From assembly GCA_900617105.1 (NCBI GenBank), contig UYFQ01000648.1, positions 1 through 51,155 of the forward strand: DNA of 51,155 bases, given 5' to 3'. The position numbers were made by a program, and so were the translations under genes. Below the pieces are notes generated by a model, which was not told the DNA's origin, did not search any database, and was given only the letters and a program-made list of their open reading frames with translations. Every line of letters begins with the position of its first letter. Positions within the stretch are counted from its first letter, which is position 1. Shown piece by piece: positions 251-36,797 of the stretch. This DNA is from Hydrurus foetidus (taxonomy: Eukaryota).

Positions 251-645
251 TGTTGGATATAGCATAGCTATCCCTACGGGGACAATCCCTTTGGGGGAAA
301 TCCCTTTGGGGTAATATCATTCAAGCCCAAGCGGAGGAGCGAGGGTAGCACTTTCGGACCCGAGAACCATCACTCATATGATGTACTGGAAGTTGCAACT
401 GATGATGACTGTGAACAGTCAACTGTAGCTAGTATAGCTAGTCATTAACTGCTTTGTTTTGACACACTGAGCACTTCTAATTAAAAGAGACTATATGGCT
501 GTGTGCCATTATACCTACACTAGAGCGAGCTGTTGGAGCAACTTTGGTCGACTAGCTGAAAGCAAAGTGTGTTCTAAACGAATCACTGCTATCAACCAGG
601 TGCTCTGACTGGATCTAGGATCCACAAGACAGTTTTATTCCAAGA
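251..645 (+). repeat. Copia 5' LTR (395 bp, TGTTGGA...TCCAAGA)
   Basis: Identical to 12596-12990 except one substitution (A at 422 versus T). Confidence 0.97.
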
Positions 646-660
646 TAATTAGAAGTCGCA
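646..660 (+). promoter_or_regulatory. Copia primer-binding site, non-canonical (TAATTAGAAGTCGCA)
   Basis: Lies immediately 3' of the 5' LTR and has no TGG. ATTAGAAGTC is complementary to the tRNA-Arg(UCU) anticodon arm GACTTCTAAT. 646-656 is also complementary to LTR 473-483. Confidence 0.75.
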
Positions 661-671
661 AGCTGCTCAGA

Positions 672-1740
672 ATGAGCCAGCGAGGCGAGAAGGGCGCTGC
701 CCAACCGAGATCCGAGAAGGGTGGAAAGTCCGAAAAATCCACGATCGGAGATGGCGTGAAGCCAGAGAATCTTCCTGAGATAGCCCACAATGGCTGGAAA
801 GAATGGGACGATAACATGCAGATATTGAAAGAGTACATGCGAGTCAACTTTCAAGACCTCGAGTCAATCTGTCCTGACCCCATGATGCTGGCGATAAAAC
901 CTGCATATGAGGTTTACGAATTCGCAGAACCCGACTATGCAAAACTCGAGGCTCTGGACGACACTACTGACCCAAAGGGATTTCGAGCAAAGCTAATGAT
1001 GGCAGACTTGAATAGTGAGAGAGCAGTCGTGACAAAGATGAAAAAGAAGCAAATGGAGGACCGCCGATCAGCATATCGACTGATCCGATCGATGTGTTCA
1101 CCATCGCTAAACGCGATTTTGATAGTGAATGCCAAATTCATTGCTGTCAAATTTGACGACCCACTTGGACTACTTGATGTCAATCAAGCCAGTAGTCACA
1201 TACACACTCACCATGAGTACGGGCGAAGAGATAACGTACGGACGGCGCGCAGTCAAGCTTTTCGACCGACTTGCTGCGACAGGAGTACCAACAGCACAAA
1301 TTCCAGATGCAAAACAACAAGCCATGAGGTTAATCGATGGTCTGAGTAGCACCATGCAGGTCTACCACGACTACAAAAACTACCTCAGCAACTTCCTCGA
1401 GTGCACCGCCATCGACATTTATCCGAAGACTTTGGTGGAGGCCATCAATGGAGCAACCCGATTCCATCGTGGGGGAAGGGTAGCACATTGCAATCAGCGA
1501 TAGCGACTCCCCACACGGCACTGGCGGCGAAGAATCCTGGTAAACAGGGTGGTCCCCCAAAGGGAGAAAAATCGCCTGCCAAAGACAAGGGCAAAAAGAT
1601 CGATGCTGACAAAATTAAGGAGCCGAAAGTGAAATTTGCTAAGGAAGCAAAGGAAGGTTAGTTCAGTGGAACCTGCTACTACTGCAAGAAAGTCGGTCAC
1701 CGCACTAGTGAGTGCAGAAAGAAGGCAACGGATGAGGCCG
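672..1740 (+). pseudogene. gag: Copia gag, frameshifted, with zinc knuckle
   Basis: ORF pieces 672-1349, 1129-1503 and 1401-1661. After an in-frame TAG at 1659-1661 the frame reads FSGTCYYCKKVGHRTSEC (CX2CX4HX4C). Confidence 0.88.
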
Positions 1741-1859
1741 ATTCAGCACCGAAAACTTCATACTCGGCCATAAGACACACCGACGAAGATGACACCAATG
1801 ATGAAGACAATGTATACACAGCTTTTGGCCAAATGTGGGATCAAGAAGTTAACGAGAAT

Positions 1860-3336
1860 CAGTAGTGCCTACCTCACCACCACCTCACCGGTGGAAGTCG
1901 CAACCCTCGGTCCTCGGACCGATTTTTCCGCAAACCAACACATCAACCAACGAAGTATCTCGGAGGCCATCTTCGACACAGGAGCTACTGGCACCATCAT
2001 TACATGTGCAGATGTTCTGACTGACATTGCAACATGCACTCCAACTGTATTCAAAGGCTTGCATGGTTCTCTTACTGTAACTAAAGCAGGAAACCTTCGA
2101 GACATTGGCATTGTTCATTTTGACCCGCGAGCTGAATTATCCATCATCTCGGCATCGGATTGCCTGTTGCAAGGCTTGGGAGTTTCGCCAAGGCTCTGCA
2201 ATAGATCAGAATGCATTTTTGCTCCACACTGATCACAACACCTACAAATTCTAACATCGTGGAGGGCTATACATCGCCGATTTGGCAACACCTCCGGAGC
2301 CGAGATATTCTGACGCCGCACAGCGCAGAAATGGATATGCTCATCCCACGATAGCAAAAACACCATCAGTAAACATATTTTACTCTACGACGCTTGCAAC
2401 AACGCAAGGAATCGAAGCCAAATTCACGAAACGCGAAGTTCAAAGAAGCGTCGATGCACGAAGAGGACGCATTATTAGGCTGAGGCCTATGCCACCACCA
2501 CAACTACCTACAACGGCCCGCAACATTGACGATCAACACATGCATTGTGATGTCATGTTCATAAATCAACACCCATTTCTAGTTTCGATTACTCACCCAC
2601 TGGGTATCGTTTTGGTGGCCTGCGTTGAGAACCTCACAACACCGGTGCTCCGACAGAGCATCTAGCGTATGTTCGGAACCATCGGGTCCCGACGCATATC
2701 CATCGTGAAATTCACAAGTGATAATGAGAGAGGCATCGCGGCACTAGTCAACGACATGAACGCCATGGGCGTCGAGGTCATTACCGTCGGTCCGGGGCAA
2801 CCTAAAGGAGACCATCCGTTGTACCATCTTCAGTCTACCGTACCTCCTACCAGATATACTGATGCCTCACCTTGTCATGAGCTCAGCAAGGAAGCTTCTA
2901 CTGTTTCCCTCATCAACAAGAACAGATAGGATCTCCCCCTTTGAAGCATTCTTTGGAAGGAAGGCCGACACGAAAAAAGATGTCGGACCGCCTTTCGGCT
3001 CATACTGCCAAGTCACCGCAAGGGTGCTTAGCAACAACATGGATCCACGAACCATCGGATGCCTCTACCTGGAACCAAAGATGAATGGCACAGGCACTCA
3101 TTCCTTCATGCGCATCGATACAAGGAGCATCATATCGGCCAACCACTACGTGGTACTACCGATACCTCCACTCGTCACCACCACTATAAATAGGTGGGCA
3201 TCAAAGAATAAAATCCACACATCGCAAGAACCGATATTCACTTTCCATGATAGAGACATCACTGGAGATAGCGACGATGATGTGGTAACAATGGATACAC
3301 TTTCAGAATCGGCACCCACGATCCAATTCCGACACC
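1860..3336 (+). pseudogene. pol: Copia pol 5' part: aspartic protease and integrase, disrupted
   Basis: AIFDTGATGTI protease motif. Integrase pieces MHCDVMFIN, FTSDNERG, SPFEAFFGRK, PFGSYC, PRTIGCLYL. Multiple frameshifts, a stop at 2663-2665 and apparent deletions. Confidence 0.9.
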
Positions 3337-3541
3337 TGTAGTCCGGATAGGAAAGTAGGTCGATAGAGTGGAGGTGTTAGTTAGTTACAGTCTAAGCTAG
3401 AAGCTAGGATAAACTTCTACGAGTAGGCTAGAGCTAGCTAGCAGCTGCGCTAGAGATGTATGTGTACAGTAGGCGGTAGGATCGGATGGATCGGGACTAG
3501 GTCCGGTACGGCCCGTAGGCCCGGTAGCCGGTCCGACCACA
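3337..3541 (-). repeat. Gypsy 3' LTR (205 bp)
   Basis: Matches 9254-9460 apart from a 2-bp indel (CCGGTAGCCG versus CCGGTATAGCCG). Adjacent to the PPT. Confidence 0.95.
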
Positions 3542-3908
3542 TCACCCCCACTTATCTTTTTTCTGAAGAAAAAGAACCTATGACGCGACCACCACGTTTT
3601 GTACAAAAATCTAATAAGGCTAAAACTAACTAAAGGAAGAATAAAGAAAAAGATTACAAATATGTAAATCTAATAATACATTGAAATGTATAAAAATATA
3701 AATTTATACAAATAGACTTGGTGGTGGGTCGGTCAAGGCGATAAGGTGGGTGCCTAGTACCATGTACTTGCGCACGAGACCTCGATACGTAATTATGTCA
3801 GATTTTTACTGACTAAAACCATAAAAACCTCATAGAGGGAAAAATTAGGAAAAATCTTCAAAAGATAATACGTTCGAGATCAGCAACTTAGGCTGATGTC
3901 TCAATGTT

Positions 3909-5420
3909 TCAGGGAATGAAATGTTTCATTTTATTATCCCGTAAATAATCATGGAGTGCTTCACAGAGCCGTAGTGATTTCCACGGCTCCCATGTATTAT
4001 GAGAGTCATCGTAGTTGAGCCATTTAACATGGAACGACATAGTAGTCGGTTTCTTGGTGTCACCAGCGTGACCCAGAACTTTCTCAACCACGAACTCCAT
4101 GTAATCGCGACGAGCAGTGTCAGCAGGTATATCTACCTCTGGGTCATAATTGAATAATTTCAAATTCTTGACGTGAACACTTCGTGTCTTGTGATTTACA
4201 AGATTAGCGAGAACGTACTCGGACCCCTTAAAGGAGACAATACAGTAAGGGCCATGCCACTTAGTATGTAATCGAGTTGGAGGTCGATCAGTGTATCGGC
4301 ATAAGACATATGACCCCACGGGGAACACAGTCGCTGATTCAACTGACGCGGCATTTTTAGCATCCGCTTTTAACAAAGTTTGAACCGCAGTTTCAAGTAC
4401 TTTGTCTTGTACACTTATCAAATCTGATATGTACGTTGATCTTGAATGTGTTCCAACACTTAAGTGTGGAGTGAGAATACCACGATTCAAATCAAGTTTG
4501 TTTCCGAACAATAAATGAGCGGGGCAGACACCTGTGCGTCTATTAACTGAACTGTTAATGATACGTTGCACGAAAGGGATTGACTTAGCATATCCCTCAA
4601 GGGTTTGTTTATCAAAAACTAAACCTCTTAAGTGTCTATTCACCTCTTTGTTGACTCTTTCAACAATTGCATTCTCTTGTTTCGAGTAAGCAAGGGTGAG
4701 ATTATGTGGTGTTCCACAAAGATCTAAGAATTCTTTGATCAATTCATTTGCGAAATGTGATCCTCGATCAGATCTAATCATATTTGGTGATCCAAATCGA
4801 CCAAAATGCGCAAGCAAACAGACAGCTGCTGATTTAGCATCTGCGTCTGCACACCAGAACAATTCTGTCCATCGTGTGAATGTATCGATGATGACTAGGA
4901 TATAACCTTTGTCAGGAAATGGACCAATATAGTCAACATTTAGCGTATCGAAGATAGCATAATTTGAAGTTGCAAAATGAGACGCATTGATCTTAGGATC
5001 TTTTGCTCTCAACTTTTGACAACACGGACAGTTCTGTATGAACGTACGTACATGTTGTTTCATGTGTTTCCATACTTGTTGTAAACTAAACAACCGAGTA
5101 AGGGTACGGTCTACGCCGTTGTGACCGACAATTGCATTGTGACACATTTGAATGTATTCTAACTGATCGTCTGAAGCTGGTTCTATGACCGTCAGAGCTG
5201 ATACAGTGAAAGACGGTGATGAAGTAGGAAGTAATTCCAATTCTTCTGTTCGTAATGGCAGAGCAATTTCTGTCAGATTAGGACAAAGCCTTGACAGTGC
5301 GTCTGCCAAAACATTCGAAGTACCGGGTACGAATACCACGGTAAAATCTAGTTCTTGCATAGCAATGAACCATCTCGCCACCATTGAGGTAAGATTTTGT
5401 TTCATATATGTAATGTTCAA
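3909..5420 (-). CDS. pol: Gypsy pol C-terminal part: end of RNase H, integrase (HHCC, DDE, GPY/F) and chromodomain
   Basis: H..GH..C..CQ zinc finger; VDYIGP, SDRGSHF and IVERVN catalytic motifs; WHGPY; chromodomain FVVEKVL..FHVKWLNYDDSHNTWEPW. Confidence 0.93.
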   Translation of the reverse strand: MNITYMKQNLTSMVARWFIAMQELDFTVVFVPGTSNVLADALSRLCPNLTEIALPLRTEELELLPTSSPSFTVSALTVIEPASDDQLEYIQMCHNAIVGHNGVDRTLTRLFSLQQVWKHMKQHVRTFIQNCPCCQKLRAKDPKINASHFATSNYAIFDTLNVDYIGPFPDKGYILVIIDTFTRWTELFWCADADAKSAAVCLLAHFGRFGSPNMIRSDRGSHFANELIKEFLDLCGTPHNLTLAYSKQENAIVERVNKEVNRHLRGLVFDKQTLEGYAKSIPFVQRIINSSVNRRTGVCPAHLLFGNKLDLNRGILTPHLSVGTHSRSTYISDLISVQDKVLETAVQTLLKADAKNAASVESATVFPVGSYVLCRYTDRPPTRLHTKWHGPYCIVSFKGSEYVLANLVNHKTRSVHVKNLKLFNYDPEVDIPADTARRDYMEFVVEKVLGHAGDTKKPTTMSFHVKWLNYDDSHNTWEPWKSLRLCEALHDYLRDNKMKHFIP

Positions 5421-6383
5421 CTGATCCGTATGGATAGTGAACGTACGATCTCTGATTAGATAATCGAGTTGTATACAACAATAGAAGATAGCGTAAGCCT
5501 CTTTTTGTGTCGTTGACCACTTTATTTGTGTGGGTCTTAACTATTTGCTTGTGAAAGCGATTGCGTGTCTAAAAGTGGTTGGTACTCTTTCGAGTCCATA
5601 AGACAGTGGAGCTCTTTAGAACAGAACGATCTGTCATATTTTACATTGGTTTCAAGTTGTAAAAAACTCTGCTTCACCCTTGCCAGATACAATACAATTG
5701 CCGAGATACATCTCACAACAATGATGTACAAGGCCATAGAGGACCGCCGTTACCATCTGCTCTCGAAAGTAAGAGGGGGCACGCCACGGACCAAAGGGCA
5801 GTTTCGTAAACTGAAATACCCCCGCAAAGCATATGAATGCCGTAAAAATGCGGTGTGCGGGGTGTAACGGTGCTTGATGGTAACCTGCGGTTAAATCCAT
5901 CACACCAAAAATATCCGGTTTTTTATTACCGATCCTCTCAAAGAGGTGTTTGATATTAGGCAACGGGAATGAGGCCGGCTTAAGACACCTATTAAGTGGC
6001 CGGTAATCGATGCAGGTTCGAAATTTACCGGGTGACTTAGTTACTATTACAGGATGACTGTAATAAGCGGCATCTGATCGCTCTATAACCCCTGATGCAA
6101 GCATCTCGTCAAGGTTTTCTTTGAGAGCAACCTCTTTTGTTGATGACTGGGGACGTACCGGCGTACGGTTTTCGTCTTTTTCCCACAACTCAAGTGGGAT
6201 GTTAATCTCAAAGGGTTTAAGTGACGCTGGTTTCTCAGCTAATTGATCACTGAAGATGTCTGAATATTCAGAACAGAGCTCTCGGAGCTTCCTTTGAAAG
6301 CTTTCATCTCCTTCAAAGGTAATCTCTTTGAGGAAATCCTCTGGCCCTTTGGGCAAGTCATCTTGACTAGGTTTCTCCGCCAA
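5421..6383 (-). pseudogene. pol: Gypsy reverse transcriptase (dead, internally deleted) and RNase H fragment
   Basis: RTCIDYRPLN, MDLTAGYHQ, FTKLPFG. The catalytic YxDD is mutated to YLGN and the ORF stops at 5652. An RNase H piece (KWSTTQKEAYAIFY..FTIHTD) follows almost directly, so the RT thumb/connection is missing. Confidence 0.9.
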
Positions 6384-6998
6384 GAAGGGGCAAACGTATC
6401 TATCTTGCCATCGTCAATCTCGTCAACTGAGAGTGCGACACCACTGGGCCATAAAGGCTCAGTGACATAGTCTAAGGTATCAGAGTCCTCAGAAGTGTTT
6501 GTAGGGGTGGGAATCTGGTCGCCACCTAGGTGCGGTGTATCACCCGTACGTTTTGCGAGAATAGTAGTGACACTATTCAGTCGCTCACAACCTACAACAC
6601 CACAGGGATCTTGGGTCATGACTCCCTCGATTTCCATCTGAGTATCGTTACATGTCGACATTGTATGGACACAAGAGACGTTGCTCTTCGAAGAAGATTG
6701 ACCATGCAATATGCTCTTCCTATTCGGATACTCGTACAATCCATATGTTTCTCTCTTATCAGAGGATGGTTTGCCGCCTGGATATTTCAGCTTGTCGTAA
6801 TGAGGTGTAAAAGACTCGACTACGGCTGTATCAGGTTCGGCACCCAACGCTATCATACGACGCGTATATTTGTGTTGAAACAATGGGTCGAGTTTATCCG
6901 ATGCGTATTTCTTATCGAATTCGCATGCGAGCATCACTCTTTCTCATATTCTCAGCGCTAAGCTCAGGAGAAATGCCGAAAGCAAATGGAGTTAACGT

Positions 6999-7600
6999 TT
7001 AAATGTCATACTTATTTACCGTATCACGGCTAAATAATATGCCAATTTCCGTCTTCCGAATAGGTACATGTGGCTGCACTTCGACATGATCATCAGTCAG
7101 ATTAAAGACATCATTATCGAAAGTGACAGCCACGCAGTCCTGGGCAAGGATGTACCTTGGTTTTGTCCCGGCTGAGTGTTGTCTCGGCTGAATAATATGT
7201 TGATATTCGTTTTTGAATAGGTACATGTGGCTGCACTTCGAGATGATCATCAGTCAGATTAAAGACATCATTATCGAAAGTGACAGCCACGCAGTCCTGG
7301 GCAAGGATGTACCTTGGTTTTGTCCCGGCTGAGTGTTGTCTCGGCAAATTAATCTGTCGATATACCCTTATGGGCAGGCTGATGCAATTGCATTCACCAT
7401 TGTAAGAATGAAAAGGATTGTAAAATCGCAAGTTTTATATTGATCGTCGCGACCGCTACACACCGTTATGGCCCTACGGGCAGGATAACAAAGGTGTATA
7501 ACGTTAAGAATTTTTATCATGTAAAATGAAATAAAACCCTTGATGAATTCGCTGTACCCCACACAGATTGATCAGCGGCGCTCTGATGGCTAGCCGGTGT
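6999..7600 (-). pseudogene. Degenerate Gypsy aspartic protease region
   Basis: Positioned upstream of RT. Remnants EFI..ITVCSG..D and IGILFSRDTVNKYD resemble the retropepsin ILGRD C-terminal motif. No intact DTG. Confidence 0.5.
7027..7345. repeat. Tandem duplication, period about 157 bp
   Basis: GAATAGGTACATGTGGCTGCACTTCG...GTGTTGTCTCGGC occurs at about 7058-7188 and 7215-7345. Confidence 0.92.
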
Positions 7601-8384
7601 TGTGTGCAGGCAAAAGGTTGATTGCACTTACGATCACTTTTTCAATCAATGCATAATATTGCATTGCAATAATTTTACTCAGCATAGAGCTGTGTGAGAA
7701 ACGTGATAGCGTGAACGAAAAGAGCGTTTCATACTAACGATCATTTGATTCATGTTGCAAAGCAACAGAACATTTCCAATGTGAGAAATATTACAATGAA
7801 AAAGTTTGGCTTAAAGCTGGAGGAACACTCCTTACTTTTTTTTTTTTTTTTTTTTGAAATGTTTGCAGTCTCAAAATCTTGTAAAGACTTTAAATCTGTT
7901 GTTAAATTATTACAACATGTGTGCCCACATATTGAAAACTAAAAAATAAAAATACGACATTTTCAAATGTACGAAAAGGTGACCCACCCCTACTGGGGCT
8001 CGAACCCCGAACTCAGGATGGTCAGTAATCCTTGGAGGATATTTTCTTTAATCGTCGATATCTCTCTACTGAGAGCGATTCGAGAGATTAGAAGCTTCAG
8101 ATCATGTTTATATGACTGTTAGGCATCTTTCTATAGGTCGTGACCTTTTCTGGGTCAAAACCTGATAAAAATCAGTCGAGAACGACGATGTCGTGCTAAG
8201 TCCATAACTCAGCAGGATGATCTCGAATTCAACCAGAACTCGGTGTAAACGATTCTATAGGATACTAGAGATCATTATCCGAAGGGACAATGATGTCCGC
8301 ATGCGAATTCTCTATGTATCTCTTGTCAAAAGATGAGCAGAAATCGTTTATTCGCTCGAGATATTTCTCCGAAGAAAAATGGCT

Positions 8385-9060
8385 GTATCTCTGTGAAGAG
8401 GTTAGCCCTGCTCAGGAAAATTTTTCCAGAGCTTCGCCTCGTTCACGAACGGGTACTGTAACGTCAGTAACAACGAATGGAGTGATTCTAACCAACTCTT
8501 GAACTGAAAAGTTCTATGGCGTGAAAGCCAAATTTAGAGTGGTAGAAAATGTATGGTACCTTAAAGGTAGAAGACGTTGCTCTACGTCGACGAAAAGAAG
8601 TCTATAGACTAACTTTGTGTCTCTGGTGATGAATCTGTGATTCAATCTACCAGCGGAACAAGTCTTAGATGACTTCTGGGAAGGATAAATCAACTTCGAC
8701 CAAGAATGTCAAGTTTTTGGAAGGTATCTCTGTGAAGAGGTTAGCCCTGCTCAGGAAAATTTTTCCAGAGCTTCGCCTCGTTCACGAACGGGTACTGTAA
8801 CGTCAGTAACAACGAATAAAGAGATTCTAACCAACTCTTGAACTGAAAAGTTCTATGGCGTGAAAGCCAAATTTAGAGTGGTAGAAAATATGGGGTACCT
8901 TTAAGGTAGAAGACGTTGCTCAACGTCGACGAAAAGAAGTCTATAGACTAACTTTGTGTCTCTGGTGACGAATCTGCGATTCAGTCGACCAGCGGAGCAA
9001 GTCTTAATGACTTCTGGGAAGGATAAATCAACTTCTACCAAGAATGTCAAGTTTTGGAAG
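8385..9060. repeat. Tandem duplication, period about 339 bp, in the Gypsy 5' internal region
   Basis: GTATCTCTGTGAAGAGGTTAGCCC...GTTTTGGAAG at 8385-8723 and 8724-9060, with scattered differences. Confidence 0.93.
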
Positions 9061-9243
9061 AGCCCAAGCACGGGGATTCCAAGAAAGCAGGTACTCTGAC
9101 TTTCTCTAACTTAGACTAGGTCTTCTGAGCCAATGGCTGCAGAAGAAAGCGACTCGGAAGTCGTAGAGCTGGTGCTCGGAAGTCTTATCTACAGGTTGGG
9201 ACGAGTAGATGGAAGGAGAGGTAGCAGAGAAAAGATTGGACTA

Positions 9244-9253
9244 ATAGCGCTAT
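9244..9253 (-). promoter_or_regulatory. Palindromic motif ATAGCGCTAT at the Gypsy PBS position
   Basis: Directly follows the 5' LTR end on the minus strand. The same motif follows LTR ends at 11303-11312 and 11665-11674. Confidence 0.75.
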
Positions 9254-9460
9254 TGTAGTCCGGATAGGAAAGTAGGTCGATAGAGTGGAGGTGTTAGTTA
9301 GTTACAGTCTAAGCTAGAAGCTAGGATAAACTTCTACGAGTAGGCTAGAGCTAGCTAGCAGCTGCGCTAGAGATGTATGTGTACAGTAGGCGGTAGGATC
9401 GGATGGATCGGGACTAGGTCCGGTACGGCCCGTAGGCCCGGTATAGCCGGTCCGACCACA
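9254..9460 (-). repeat. Gypsy 5' LTR (207 bp)
   Basis: Near-identical to 3337-3541. Confidence 0.95.
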
Positions 9461-9464
9461 CACC

Positions 9465-12438
9465 CACCTCCCATACAACCGGTGTTCCGGGATGAAACCG
9501 ACACGCCTGATACCGTGATAGAACCTCAAATTACACAAGACCAATTGGAGATTCGGGGTGAAATGGAATCAGTGGTCGATGAAAATAATAGTATGCCCAC
9601 TACTGACGAAGTATCCGGGCAGAAACTAATTTTGAACCGGTATCGGAGGAGCAACCAGAGGCACTACCTACCTCCGTGCGTACGCACGTGCCCAGTGCAC
9701 GTATTGAAATGCGTGAGAAATCGACGAGAATTCGAAAGCCACCTGACAGACTCGACTTAGTAGCTAAGAAACTACCTATTTCAACGTGGAAAGAGGGAAT
9801 TAGGGGTGAGTGGTCATTAATGATAGTAACCCGGGCCCTGAAACTTTTTCCGGACAAGGCCACCGCAGCCATCGAGTCAGAGGTGAAATCACTACTTGCA
9901 AAGGAAACATTTTAGGTTGTACACATGGAACAGCTATCACCTACTCAGAGGCAGAAGATACTGCGTTCTAACATGAATGTTGTGGAGAAATACCTCCCAA
10001 CAGTGAATTCGAATGGTGATCGCCAGATTGACAAGGTCAAGGCACGTTTCTTTGTGGATGGGCGTGCTCAAGTTAGAGAAGACTATGCTGCAGATGAAGT
10101 TGAGTCACCGACAGCGACTATAGCTTCCATCTTTTCAGTTGCACAAATCGCTGCTGTGGAAAACTGTTTCATTATGGTCGGGGACGTTGGGTCCGCGAAA
10201 CTCAACGCCGATATGCCTAAGGAAAAACCGGATAAAATCCTCCATATGTTCATCGATAAGAATGTGGCCGACGCAATCATCAAACAAGACAAATCATTTG
10301 AGTGTTACCGAAGACACTATGGAGGGCTAGTGGTGAGACTGGACAAAGCACTTTACGGGTGTATCGAGTCCGCCAAACTATGGTATAACGAAATAGCCGG
10401 AACACTGGGCGGTAATGGTTTTACGGCCAACCCGCGCGATATTTGCGTCTTTAATAAGGACGTCAAAGGTAACCAATTTACAATCCTAGTCTGCGTAGAC
10501 GATTTGATGATGACGTGTGTGGACAAGAAAGCAGTTTTGGATTTTGAGCAAACTTTGCTGAAAACGTACGGACAATTTCGTACCACTCAAGAGCGTGTCG
10601 TACCGTACCTAGGTTGCAAGTGGGATTTCACCGAGAAAGGTTTTGTAAAGGTCACACAGATCGGAATGATTCAAGATCTGATCTCATCAAGGGAAAAAAG
10701 CCATGCCGAACGCGGTATGAACCTCATTGGGAATCCTCATTGGGAATCCACACCTATTTGAGCGGACCTTGGACTGCAAATTCCTGATTGAGAAAGACGC
10801 TAAAACCTTCCATACAGACGTCGCTACAGCGCTATACCTGGGGAACCGAATGCGCCCAGATATCGTATTAGTGTTAGGTGAACTTTGCAAACGTGTAAAG
10901 GCACCAATATAGTCCAGATAGGAAATAGGTCGATAGAGGAAAGGTGTTAGTTAGTTACAAGGCTACGAGCTAGAAGCTAGGATAACTTCTACGAGTAGGC
11001 TAGAGCTAGCTAGCAGCTGCGCTAGAGATGTATGTGTACAGTAGGCGGTAGGATCGGATGGATCGGGACAAGGTCCGGTACGGCCCGTAGGCCCGGTATA
11101 GCCGGTCCGACCACCGGGCCTACGGGCCGTACCGGACCTTGTCACGATCCACCCGATCCTTCCGCCTACAGTACACATACAGCCCTACCACGACTAGCTA
11201 GCTAGCTGCAGCCTACTCGTAGAAGTTACCTAGCTTCTAGCATAGCCTGTAACCTAAGCACAACCCGCTCTTCTGCCCATCTTCTTTTCCATCAGGACTA
11301 CAATAGCGCTATTATAGTCCAGATAGGAAATAGGTCGATAGAGGAAAGGTGTTAGTTAGTTACAAGGCTACGAGCTAGGTTATTATTAGTTATTATATTT
11401 TTAAACGTGGTGGTCGCGTCATAGATTAGATTTCTCCAAAAAAGAGATAAGTGGGGGAAATGTGGTCGTACCGGGTATACCGGGCCTACGGGCCGTACCG
11501 GACCTTGTCACGATCCACCCGATCCTTCCGCCTACAGTACACATACAGCCCTACCACGACTAGCTAGCTAGCTGCAGCCTACTCGTAGAAGTTACCTAGC
11601 TACTAGCATAGCCTGTAACCTAACACCCGCTCTTCTGCCCATCTTCTTTTCCATCAGGACTACAATAGCGCTATTATAGTCCAGATAGGAAATAGGTCGA
11701 TAGAGGAAAGGTGTTAGTTAGTTACAAGGCTACGAGCTAGAAGCTAGGATAACTTCTACGAGTAGGCTAGAGCTAGCTAGCAGCTGCGCTAGAGATGTAT
11801 GTGTACAGTAGGCGGTAGGATCGGATGGATCGGGACAAGGTCCGGTACGCCCGTAGGCCCGGTATAGCCGGTCCGACCACACCAACAACAGAAGACGACA
11901 AGAAACTCGATAGGCTCATATGCTATCTGAGGGCTACTAGAGACAAGCCCCTACGACTCGGTTGCACTTTACCACTGACAGTTACAGTATCAATTGATGC
12001 TGCATTTGCTAACCGAGATATGATGAAGTCAACCTCAGGAAGGTGTGTCACATTGGGGTGGGATTTTTTATCACGAGTTCCAAGGTCCAAAAGCTCAATT
12101 CCAAGTCAAGTACGGAGTCCGAGATCATCGTAGTTTCCGACGGCATGAACATTCCGCTCTGGCTTGCAGGATTCATTGCATACCAAGGACATCGGGAACT
12201 ACCAGTGAACCTCGAACAAGACAATCAGTCATGCATTGCATTGCTGACAAAGGGTCGGTCTACCGCAGAAACCACCCGCTTTATTGAGGTACGGAAATTC
12301 TGGATACCATACTACATCCGTAACGGTGCCGTAAATTTCATCTACGTGCCAACTGAGGATATGACATCCGATTACTACACTAAGCCGTTGCAAGGAAACG
12401 TTTTTTTAAAGATGGTGAAGAAAATTATGGGAAATTAA
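9465..12438 (+). pseudogene. pol: Copia pol 3' part: reverse transcriptase and RNase H, disrupted and split by the 10908-11881 insert
   Basis: KVKARF, GDVGSA, RLDKALYGCIESAKLWY, CVDDLM, RPDI. RNase H motifs IDAAF, SSTESE, QDNQS, DYYTKPL. Stop at 9913-9915, a short duplication/frameshift near 10730-10752 and a frameshift near 12060. Confidence 0.93.
10908..11881. mobile_element. 974-bp non-coding TRIM-like mini-element of Gypsy-family LTRs in both orientations
   Basis: TSD CCAA at 10904-10907 and 11882-11885. Removal restores the Copia frame (VKAP-TTEDDKKL). Parts: A1(-) 10908-11114, B1(+) about 11113-11302, motif 11303-11312, partial A(-) 11313-11378, 3' UTR and PPT 11379-11460, B2(+) 11461-11664, motif 11665-11674, A2(-) 11675-11881. 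Confidence 0.92.
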
Positions 12439-12595
12439 GTAGTATACATTATTGACTTACAGTTGAGCTATTTTTCAAAATTTTATTAGCAACAATACTT
12501 GTATGATCACTATAGCTAACAGCAGATACAAATACAATTTATGTTTCATTTCCATGAAAAAATACGAATATGCCGCCTGAATGACATTAGGGGTG

Positions 12596-12990
12596 TGTTG
12601 GATATAGCATAGCTATCCCTACGGGGACAATCCCTTTGGGGGAAATCCCTTTGGGGTAATATCATTCAAGCCCAAGCGGAGGAGCGAGGGTAGCACTTTC
12701 GGACCCGAGAACCATCACTCATATGATGTACTGGAAGTTGCAACTGATGATGACTGTGAACAGTCATCTGTAGCTAGTATAGCTAGTCATTAACTGCTTT
12801 GTTTTGACACACTGAGCACTTCTAATTAAAAGAGACTATATGGCTGTGTGCCATTATACCTACACTAGAGCGAGCTGTTGGAGCAACTTTGGTCGACTAG
12901 CTGAAAGCAAAGTGTGTTCTAAACGAATCACTGCTATCAACCAGGTGCTCTGACTGGATCTAGGATCCACAAGACAGTTTTATTCCAAGA
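12596..12990 (+). repeat. Copia 3' LTR (395 bp)
   Basis: Direct repeat of 251-645, followed by TSD AGAAT. Confidence 0.97.
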
Positions 12991-13234
12991 AGAATTGTGG
13001 CCTCATGAATGATTTTTTTTCCCGTTCGTTTATGTTCCGTTCAACGTTCGTTCGTCTTCGCTGTGGTCCCAGCGGGTCAGCGGGTCGATAAATTTTGACC
13101 ATAGAATTTGACGACAGAATACTTCATGGTTTTCAATTAATTCTATCGAATTTCGAATTTTGTTCAAAAAGCGTTTTTTGATCACTCAACTGCCACGTCC
13201 GTCATTTCTGAGCAAACTAGAAACAACTCAATAA

Positions 13235-34183: not shown

Positions 34184-36797
34184 ATGGATCCAACTCCTGT
34201 CGTTGCTGCCTCGGCGGAGCCAGACGATGTTTACTCCATGCAAGCTAAAATAACTAGCCAGCAAAGTGTCATCAAACTTCTGAAGAAAAGCGGCACCGCG
34301 TCGGCACAAGCTATTGCGGACGGTGTTGCAATCCTTCTGGAACTGAGAGCCTCATTAGCTGAAATGCAGAAAACTACGGATCCCGTTGAGGTGTTCAACA
34401 GAAAGTCTTTCGATGAGCTAATTCTTCGCAAGATGTACGTTGTCCCAAGTTTTGAAATTCACAATGGACCTGCTGGACTGTTTGACTACGGACCCCCAGC
34501 TTGTGCGTTGAAATCAAACGTTCTCGCTCTTTGGCGCCAGCATTTTGCGTTGGAGGAGAATATGTTGGAAATGGAATGCACCAACTTGACTCCAAGTGTA
34601 GTGCTGGAGACATCAGGGCATGTAGAGCGCTTTACTGATTTCATGGTCAAAGATGAGAAAACAAGCGAGTGCTTCCGTGCCGACAAATTGCTTGAGGATG
34701 CAATTGATAAACTCTTGGACAGTAACCCTACGATGCCAGTTGAGGAGCAGGAAGCTCACAGAATAATTCAGGTCATGATGATGTGCTTGTCAGACAATTT
34801 TTCAGAATTATCATGCTTTTTTTGCTTACTTCTACGGCCTACTCCTACAATTATTTATCTCCTACTTTCAGAGGCAAGCGGACGCTTTTACTGCAGAAGA
34901 ATTGCACGGCATGCTTAAGAAGTATTCCGTGAAGTCACCTAGCAATCCCGAAAACGAGCTCACCCAGCCATTTCCCTTCAACTTGATGTTCAAAACAACC
35001 ATCGGGCCTGAGGGCACATCTGTGGGATATCTAAGACCTGAGACAGCCCAGGGACTATTCGTCAACTTCAGGTACGATACCATACAGCAACTCATGTGAT
35101 TCCTCGTATTAAGACTTCTCTTCCCAGTCAACACACATTTCTTAAATTCTTTGTATTCACCACTTTACAGGCGTTTGTTAGACTATAATCAGCAGAGGAT
35201 GCCCTTTGCAGCAGCTCAGATCGGATTGGGCTTTCGCAATGAGATCGCTCCTCGTAACGGCCTTCTCCGTGTGAGAGAATTCTGCATGGCAGAAATTGAG
35301 CACTTCGTTAATCCGGACGACAAAACTCACCCTAAATTTCACAAAGTAGCGGACAAGGAGTTGGTGTTGTTTCCATCTGACGCTCAGCTGGGATCAGGAA
35401 GGACTGTCGTGATGACAGCGGGAGAGGCTGTGGAGAGAAAGGTGATCAACAACGAGACTCTCGCGTACTTCATGACAAGGACTCAGATGTGGCTGGAGAA
35501 GATTGGAGTGGACCCAAAGAGAATGAGATTCAGACAGCATCTTAAGAGCGAGATGGCGCACTATGCAGCTGACTGCTGGGACATGGAGATACATCTTTCC
35601 TACGGATGGATTGAGTGTGTCGGACATGCTGATAGAGCTTGCTATGATCTAGACCAGCACGCCAAGAAATCCGGTGTGCCCATGGTGGCAGCTGTGAGAC
35701 TGCCAGAGCCTATCTTAGTGGACAAAATGATAGCAGAGCCGAACAAAAAGCTTCTGGGTCCTCGATTTAAGTTGGATCAGAAGACCGTCATCAACGCCCT
35801 TGAGGCCCTGGAGGGACTCGAAGTGGAGACCTTCAAGGCCACCATCGAAGAAAAGGGGGTGGCCACATTGGCTGGGTTTGAGATCACAAAGGACCTCGTG
35901 ACTTTCAAGACGGAGAAGAAAACGATCGTTGAGACTAAGTACACACCGAGTGTCATCGAGCCTTCATACGGCATCGGACGCATCTTATACGCAGTGCTAG
36001 AACACTCCTTCTCCCAGAGGAGTGGGGACGAGAACAGATGCGTGATGTCCTTCAAGCCCTGTGTGGCACCTATGAAGGTGGGCATCTACAGACTGATCAA
36101 CCACCCGCCCTTCGACTCCATTATCGGCAGGCTGAGGGACTCCTTGCAGGCCTCCAACATAGTGTCCAGGGTAGATAGCTCCTCCGGATCAGTGGGCAGG
36201 AGATATGCCAGAGCTGATGAACTGGGCATTCCATTCGGAGCAACCATCGACTTCCAGACTTTGCTAGACGACTCCGTGACTCTGCGAGATAGAAACACTA
36301 TGGCACAAGTGAGGGTGCCTCTCAGCAGACTGAATGTCCTACTACATCAGCTGATAGCCGAGACCATTTCATGGGATGTGGTCATGATGCGCTTTCCTAT
36401 TGTGCATGCGGGAGGGGAGGAGGCGGACGAGGAGGAGGAATCCTCCAAGTCCACTGCCGCTGCTGCTAGTGCTGTGTCAGTGACTCCAGCTGACATACCC
36501 GCCACTATCGTGCAGAACACGCACAGAGGGATGTTCAGCAGACCTAACCCTCTCTCCTCAGGTGCAGTGTTCACATCCCTTACTGCTGCTGCTGCTTCCA
36601 CTGCTTCTCCTTCTGCTACTGCATCTGCTGCAACTGCATCAACATCAAAGACATCGAAGGCTACTGTCAACATTGCCAAACCTACCCCTACCCCTTCCTC
36701 TGAGAACACTGCATCTGAATTTGCCAATGCACCAGCATCGAAATCCCGAATCATCTTAGTGAAAACTAACAAATACTCCGTTTATGCAATTTATTGA
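34184..36797 (+). CDS. GARS: Glycyl-tRNA synthetase, eukaryotic alpha2 type, with WHEP-like N-terminus (3 exons)
   Basis: GLFDYGP, TSGHVERFTDFMV, YLRPETAQGLF, FRNEIAPRNGLLRVREFCMAEIEHF, VIEPSYGIGRI, GRRYARADELGIP. Introns at 34772-34871 and 35072-35170. Confidence 0.97.

Follow-up and report, generated by a model that had tools for sequence, protein, structure and literature searches.

A Copia retrotransposon of a likely golden alga and most of its readable distant relatives carry post-LTR sites complementary to their own LTRs, pointing to self-primed reverse transcription

The Copia element at positions 251–12990 (+ strand) of the window, i.e., the whole stretch of 51,155 nucleotides analyzed, raises the question from which primer its reverse transcription is started, as the putative primer-binding site (PBS) behind its 5′ LTR begins with TAA, whereas a Copia PBS for a full tRNA would begin with TGG. 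The element is delimited by a 5′ LTR (251–645, + strand) and a 3′ LTR (12596–12990, + strand) of 395 bp each, identical at 394 of 395 positions, and is flanked by a 5-bp target site duplication (AGAAT at 246–250 and 12991–12995). Translation and tblastn assign the region 672–3336 (+ strand) to the gag-protease-integrase part of the polyprotein and the region 9465–12438 (+ strand) to reverse transcriptase (RT) and RNase H, the latter part being broken and additionally interrupted by an insertion at about 10908–11881; in the tblastn comparison, the alignments of full-length relatives begin with the ATG at 672 and extend over gag, protease, integrase, RT, and RNase H. A Pfam RVT_2 match on 9916–10758 (E 3.4e-17, at merely 63 bits) identifies the RT as Copia-type, and the resulting domain order Gag-PR-IN-RT-RH is that of Ty1/Copia elements, with the PR, IN, and RH motifs being those which we take to be typical of these domains. 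Ahead of the 3′ LTR lies a polypurine-tract-like stretch (12586–12595, + strand), and similar G-rich tracts also precede the LTR in relatives. Ty1/Copia LTRs usually, not universally, have TG…CA termini. Here, both LTRs start with TG and end with GA instead of CA, reading TCCAAGA (639–645 and 12984–12990) where TCCAACA would be expected as the mirror of TGTTGGA; position 644 is without variant in the sequencing runs X3–X5 described below, and the GA end appears to be family-wide in these runs, unusual as it is for an integrase substrate. This copy is dead due to stops and frameshifts, present also in the gag-protease-integrase part, and two nested insertions. The LTRs are 99.7% identical although the coding region is disrupted in so many places, and this combination possibly reflects a defective RNA mobilized in trans or assembly indels.

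One of the nested insertions is a Gypsy chromovirus on the − strand (3337–9460; Pfam Chromo, rve, RVT_1); the PR-RT-RH-IN order and the chromodomain that characterize Gypsy chromoviruses are not found in the Copia element. The post-LTR site of the nested Gypsy element (9238–9253) bears a perfect 10-nt palindrome, ATAGCGCTAT, which sits within a larger inverted repeat involving the Gypsy LTR end and recalls the hairpin site of the fungal GalEa elements discussed below; neither TGG nor an LTR complement of at least 6 nt was found at this site. The second insertion, at about 10908–11881, shows LTRs related to those of the nested Gypsy element and internal inverted LTR pieces, has no coding part, and is possibly a small non-autonomous element. 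The same window encodes a glycyl-tRNA synthetase (35100–36797). Among the 120 matches listed, the named ones are Ochromonadaceae (66%), Ochromonas (65%), and Chromulina (62%), besides one other label, “archaeon”, while metagenome matches show 80–88% identity. Since these named matches are chrysophytes, a golden alga is the likely host. A tRNA gene was not found in the 51,155-nt window.

The predicted PBS, TAATTAGAAGT (646–656, + strand), follows the LTR without a gap and is a perfect reverse complement of positions 473–483 in the 5′ LTR, as sequence comparison established in agreement with the preliminary description. The complementary LTR arm (473–483, + strand; core 474–483) would correspond to the first 11 nt of the element’s RNA and is the predicted self-primer, with a second copy of its sequence at 12818–12828 in the 3′ LTR. 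Against the definition of self-priming given in PMC6317226 (an LTR complement of at least 10 bp, 0–5 nt past the 5′ LTR), the element shows 11 bp at an offset of 0.

Folding predictions favor this helix. The ten pairs 474–483/646–655 have a predicted probability of 0.8–0.99 at all four start points tried, while the outer pair 473/656 reaches only 0.19–0.26. A second pairing, of 467–472 with 665–670, had been proposed in addition; it holds as complementary letters, but its predicted probability is at most 0.01, because 665–669 instead pairs with 673–677 in a small hairpin around the gag ATG at 672 (665–677, + strand; pair probability 0.5–1.0). With position 467 being mostly A in X3–X5 and the segment 467–472 lying upstream of the predicted transcription start, this second helix was rejected. 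Between the two arms of the primer-PBS helix lies a predicted long R/U5 hairpin (528–612, + strand), to which variants lend weak support: six to seven of ten variants at likely paired positions preserve pairing, and one X1 contig has 536A together with 605T. The fold of 473–680 as a whole is unremarkable (z-score −1.35), and an Rfam search of 200–900 gave a single match at chance level (15 bits, E 0.44).

Variation within the family was followed in assembled contigs from the RNA runs X1 and X2, with a small word share of 0.07 and 0.05, respectively, and from X3–X5, three runs of one study on organism A with word shares of 0.29–0.43 and many divergent copies, applying a variant threshold of 6% of the summed contig depth to the latter. 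Contigs departing from the reference at 645 (four in X3, seven in X4) back this position as the LTR end. At this threshold, no substitution is present in 468–503 or 634–655 in X3–X5, and the only variant of any kind within 468–503 is a deletion of one A in the 483–486 run in X5. Position 656, by contrast to these constant columns, reads C in 58–77% of the summed depth, so the core helix of the family comprises 10 bp; likewise, position 467 reads A in 65–92%, and the helix 467–472/665–670 is consequently unconserved within the family. Given 21 variable places in 206, the invariance of the 20 paired columns has a P of 0.10, which is non-significant alone; the pattern is compatible with the helix, consistent with it but not proof.

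A search of JGI metagenomes with 21 aligned relatives gave 138 confirmed loci, 80 of which were kept; 53 were readable from the pol stop to the gag ATG, many of them once contigs whose ends overlap had been closed, and the 27 lacking this stretch were dropped. All relatives compared at the DNA level are distant (RT identity of at most 40%), with the close clade P0001–P0035 lying outside this comparison. When the LTR end was picked blind, by terminal motifs only, 28 of the 53 relatives showed a perfect complement of at least 10 bp, always at offset 0, compared to 6 of 212 positional controls, and several of the misses are due to mis-called LTR ends. In a free search accepting any CA, TA, or GA up to 160 nt from the gag ATG as LTR end, perfect pairing of at least 10 bp between post-LTR sequence and own LTR was found in 40 of 53 relatives, versus a mean of 1.05 and a maximum of 3 in 40 whole-region shuffles; a complement of at least 12 bp is present in 29 relatives versus 0.075 in shuffles. 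LTR ends read AACA in 34 of the 40 positive relatives. A chance match of an AT-rich word, suggested by the 73% A+T of the window’s TAATTAGAAGT, can hence be regarded as extremely unlikely, considering the base-composition expectation of only 1.6e-4 per LTR for such an 11-mer complement and the recurrence in relatives far beyond the roughly one case in shuffles.

The positives are spread over the lineage: when the 52 rows with an RT (window included) are clustered at 80% identity, positives occur in 33 of 43 clusters, and at 50% in 17 of 21 (window included). Among them are 35 distinct PBS 10-mers. The compensatory change between PBS and LTR arm that had been proposed as a check is thus seen in the relatives, with the complement being kept while its letters differ. 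At close range, loci L076 and L078 differ from the near-identical L077 by a single two-sided change in arm and PBS. The remaining 13 of 53 relatives do not reach 10 perfect bp; roughly six of these have duplexes of 9–12 nt, scores that are reachable by shuffles, and three of the latter contain G-U or one mismatch. The RT of one negative locus, L071, is nearly the same as that of the positive L072. In predicted transcripts of relatives, the helix has a probability of at least 0.5 in 25 of 32 cases. Relatives were found in none of 27 stretches of the viral contigs searched.

Complementarity to the own LTR might also accompany priming by a half-tRNA, i.e., a tRNA cut in the anticodon stem (here with an Arg-UCU-like loop) would bind the PBS and the LTR copy would be a decoy gating the reaction. 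The reverse complement of 646–656 indeed fits what we take to be the anticodon-loop pattern, Y-U-NNN-R-N, with TCT as anticodon and the 3′ end at position 41. Moreover, half-tRNA primers are used by the Copia lineages Osser, Bryco, and Bianca, as described in PMC6317226. Across the relatives, however, this pattern is fitted by 16 of 41 positives compared to 12.7 (maximum 24) for shuffled PBSs, several of the implied anticodons (TTA, CTA, TCA) would read stop codons, and 35 different 10-mers each follow their own LTR; in the window’s family, the common 656C would be a mismatch inside the tRNA duplex. Half-tRNA priming is therefore improbable, yet it is the foremost alternative for the window’s family, and the related suggestion in the preliminary description of a tRNA-mimicking gate is disfavored across the lineage, if not for this one family. 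As for full tRNAs, TGG occurs within the first six bases in one of 54 called post-LTR sites.

Long-range pairings of the 5′ end are common in retroelement leaders. From this general knowledge, the helix might as well serve packaging, dimerization, or translation control, with priming using something else. Yet the 3′ end of the arm meets the first post-LTR base in all 28 blind positives, a register that only a primer needs, and an alternative primer site is not apparent in the called sites, making such a non-priming role very unlikely.

The position of the LTR arm provides a link to transcription initiation. In the window, the arm begins within the initiator-like sequence GCACTTC (471–477, + strand), which matches the oomycete initiator YCAYTYY at six of seven positions, G471 being the mismatch to the strict motif; in oomycetes, transcription starts map near this motif, according to the sections on it in PMC3599244. 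The same is seen in relatives: for 32 of the 40 positives, compared to 4.8 expected, the arm starts with the A of a CA dinucleotide or one base past it, and position −2 is T in 23 of 33 cases, position +2 a pyrimidine in 31 of 33, a context resembling the initiator of oomycetes, i.e., of another stramenopile group. The start of the LTR arm at an initiator-like CA points to an RNA start at 473, and from the sequence context and by analogy we infer transcription from A473 and use of an oomycete-type initiator by a chrysophyte. The primers implied for the relatives would be 10–16 nt long and located 88–266 nt (in one case 570 nt) from the LTR end, compared to 11 nt and 173 nt in the window.

In single contigs of X3 and X4 (one of 332 and one of 309, respectively; depth of about 140), position 472 is joined to 656 in opposite strands through the 11-mer. 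This joint is a hint that primer site and LTR arm interact, and originates either from copying of a 5′-extended primer or from a DNA template switch. It also bears on a variant of self-priming in which the 11-mer is provided by another copy, either that of the 3′ LTR part (12818–12828) or a second RNA, so that the primer carries U3 sequence at its 5′ side: read through the joint, the PBS is followed by the complement of U3, as this variant predicts. Similarly, locus L004 has a perfect leader-LTR complement of 33 bp, far longer than in any other relative, which extends beyond any start motif. On the other hand, the joint is rare and was found in one study only, a template switch at the 11-bp inverted repeat would give it as well, and the ending of the complement at the CA motif in 32 of 40 relatives is what is expected if the 5′ ends of primer and RNA coincide. 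Priming from another copy is accordingly considered quite improbable.

Taken together, the lineage probably primes reverse transcription in the manner of Tf1, with the first 10–16 nt of its own RNA. This reading, already proposed in the preliminary description for the single element, gains from the retention of the complement across distant relatives with changing letters and from arms starting at CA. RNA polymerase II would initiate at position 473, the A in the initiator-like CA, whereupon RNA bases 1–11, with the +1 A often unpaired, would anneal to 646–656 across the folded R-U5 loop. Cleavage after the last paired base, 483, by the element’s RNase H, as assumed by analogy with Tf1, would free a 3′-OH exactly at the LTR end, from which RT could copy U5 and R to give minus strong-stop DNA. 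In plus-strand synthesis, the retained primer would be copied in turn, and the PBS would be rewritten from the RNA 5′ end in every cycle. Such rewriting would explain perfect complementarity despite freely drifting letters.

In Tf1 of Schizosaccharomyces pombe, the PBS is paired with the first 11 RNA bases, and RNase H cleaves the RNA between bases 11 and 12 (as outlined in PMC7175516), about half of the cDNAs still carry a PBS copy, single-stranded, at their 3′ end (results given in PMC11042837), and Tf1/sushi RNAs form two further duplexes beside the PBS, resulting in a three-duplex “pretzel” (as presented in bioRxiv 10.1101/2022.12.06.519325). This mechanism has been shown experimentally, whereas the one outlined here derives from sequence. 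Tf1 and Tf2 are furthermore Ty3/Gypsy chromoviruses of the Tf1/sushi group, in contrast to the Copia order, the RVT_2 RT, and the missing chromodomain of the present element, and differ from it and its relatives in the predicted primer length of 10–16 nt, the often unpaired +1 A, and the GA end of the LTR in the window’s family. The two flanking duplexes of the pretzel are likewise without excess over shuffles here, both for the Tf1-type leader-LTR duplex (3.25 versus 3.61 pairs in shuffled sequences, p 0.30) and for that at the U5 end (4.36 versus 4.10 pairs, p 0.59) in a thermodynamic test with n = 32. In the window, a leader-LTR duplex of about 9 bp forms only when the ATG hairpin (665–677) is left out.

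Contrary to the statement in the preliminary description that self-priming is known only in Gypsy lineages, Copia elements with this trait have been proposed before, since it has been predicted for 89% of 203 elements of the plant lineage TAR (Houba, Osr-1) in the survey reported in PMC6317226. The present lineage resembles TAR in being Copia with self-priming predicted by the same definition, and differs from its land-plant-hosted elements by a host that is chrysophyte-like and by having diatom elements among its relatives. In an unrooted RT tree, named Copia proteins of diatoms (Nitzschia, Fistulifera, Fragilaria) are placed within the set of self-complementary loci, while the window’s RT, 30–32% identical to these proteins, forms its own long branch (SH-aLRT 100); atlas neighbors of the element are mostly Bacillariophyta clusters. 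The protein search that found these named relatives gave no named CoDi or TAR reference among its matches. Hence, diatom Copia RTs share the tree with the positives, but none is a named reference of the diatom groups CoDiI and CoDiII (Maumus 2009), and the main text of PMC2806351 on these groups does not mention tRNA or primer binding. The fungal GalEa Copia elements also have no tRNA PBS and bear an AT-rich Conserved Hairpin Site (CHS) right after the LTR, for which, according to the pertinent part of PMC5445492, no complementary LTR sequence was found. The algal elements are alike in the missing tRNA PBS and the AT-rich post-LTR motif, but differ in that the LTR complement is present and defining. 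In PMC1940013 (rice, Houba) and PMC12477816 (Ectocarpus), PBS or priming terms do not occur, and the literature on self-priming in Copia, diatoms, and stramenopiles yielded no report for algal Copia elements, with subscription journals and Repbase/GyDB being outside the scope of this search.

A broader evolutionary reading can be put forward tentatively, at somewhat less than even probability: golden algae and diatoms may share an old Copia lineage whose tRNA-free priming arose separately from that of Tf1 and plant TAR. In this minimal form, the promoter initiator would double as the primer, a pretzel scaffold would be unnecessary, and rewriting of the PBS from the RNA 5′ end in each cycle would make primer and PBS drift in step. 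In the family represented by the element at 251–12990, the AT-rich primer resembling an anticodon loop may then record a half-tRNA origin. To our knowledge, experiments have demonstrated self-priming in Gypsy elements of fission yeast alone, and for Copia there has been only a prediction, in one plant lineage. With its shared geometry, changing letters, and link to the initiator, the algal lineage can serve for testing whether a Copia RT/RNase H cuts and uses a self-primer, how many times priming without tRNA has originated, and whether such priming can do without the Tf1 scaffold. Annotation tools demanding a tRNA PBS would miss or misjudge such abundant elements of algae.
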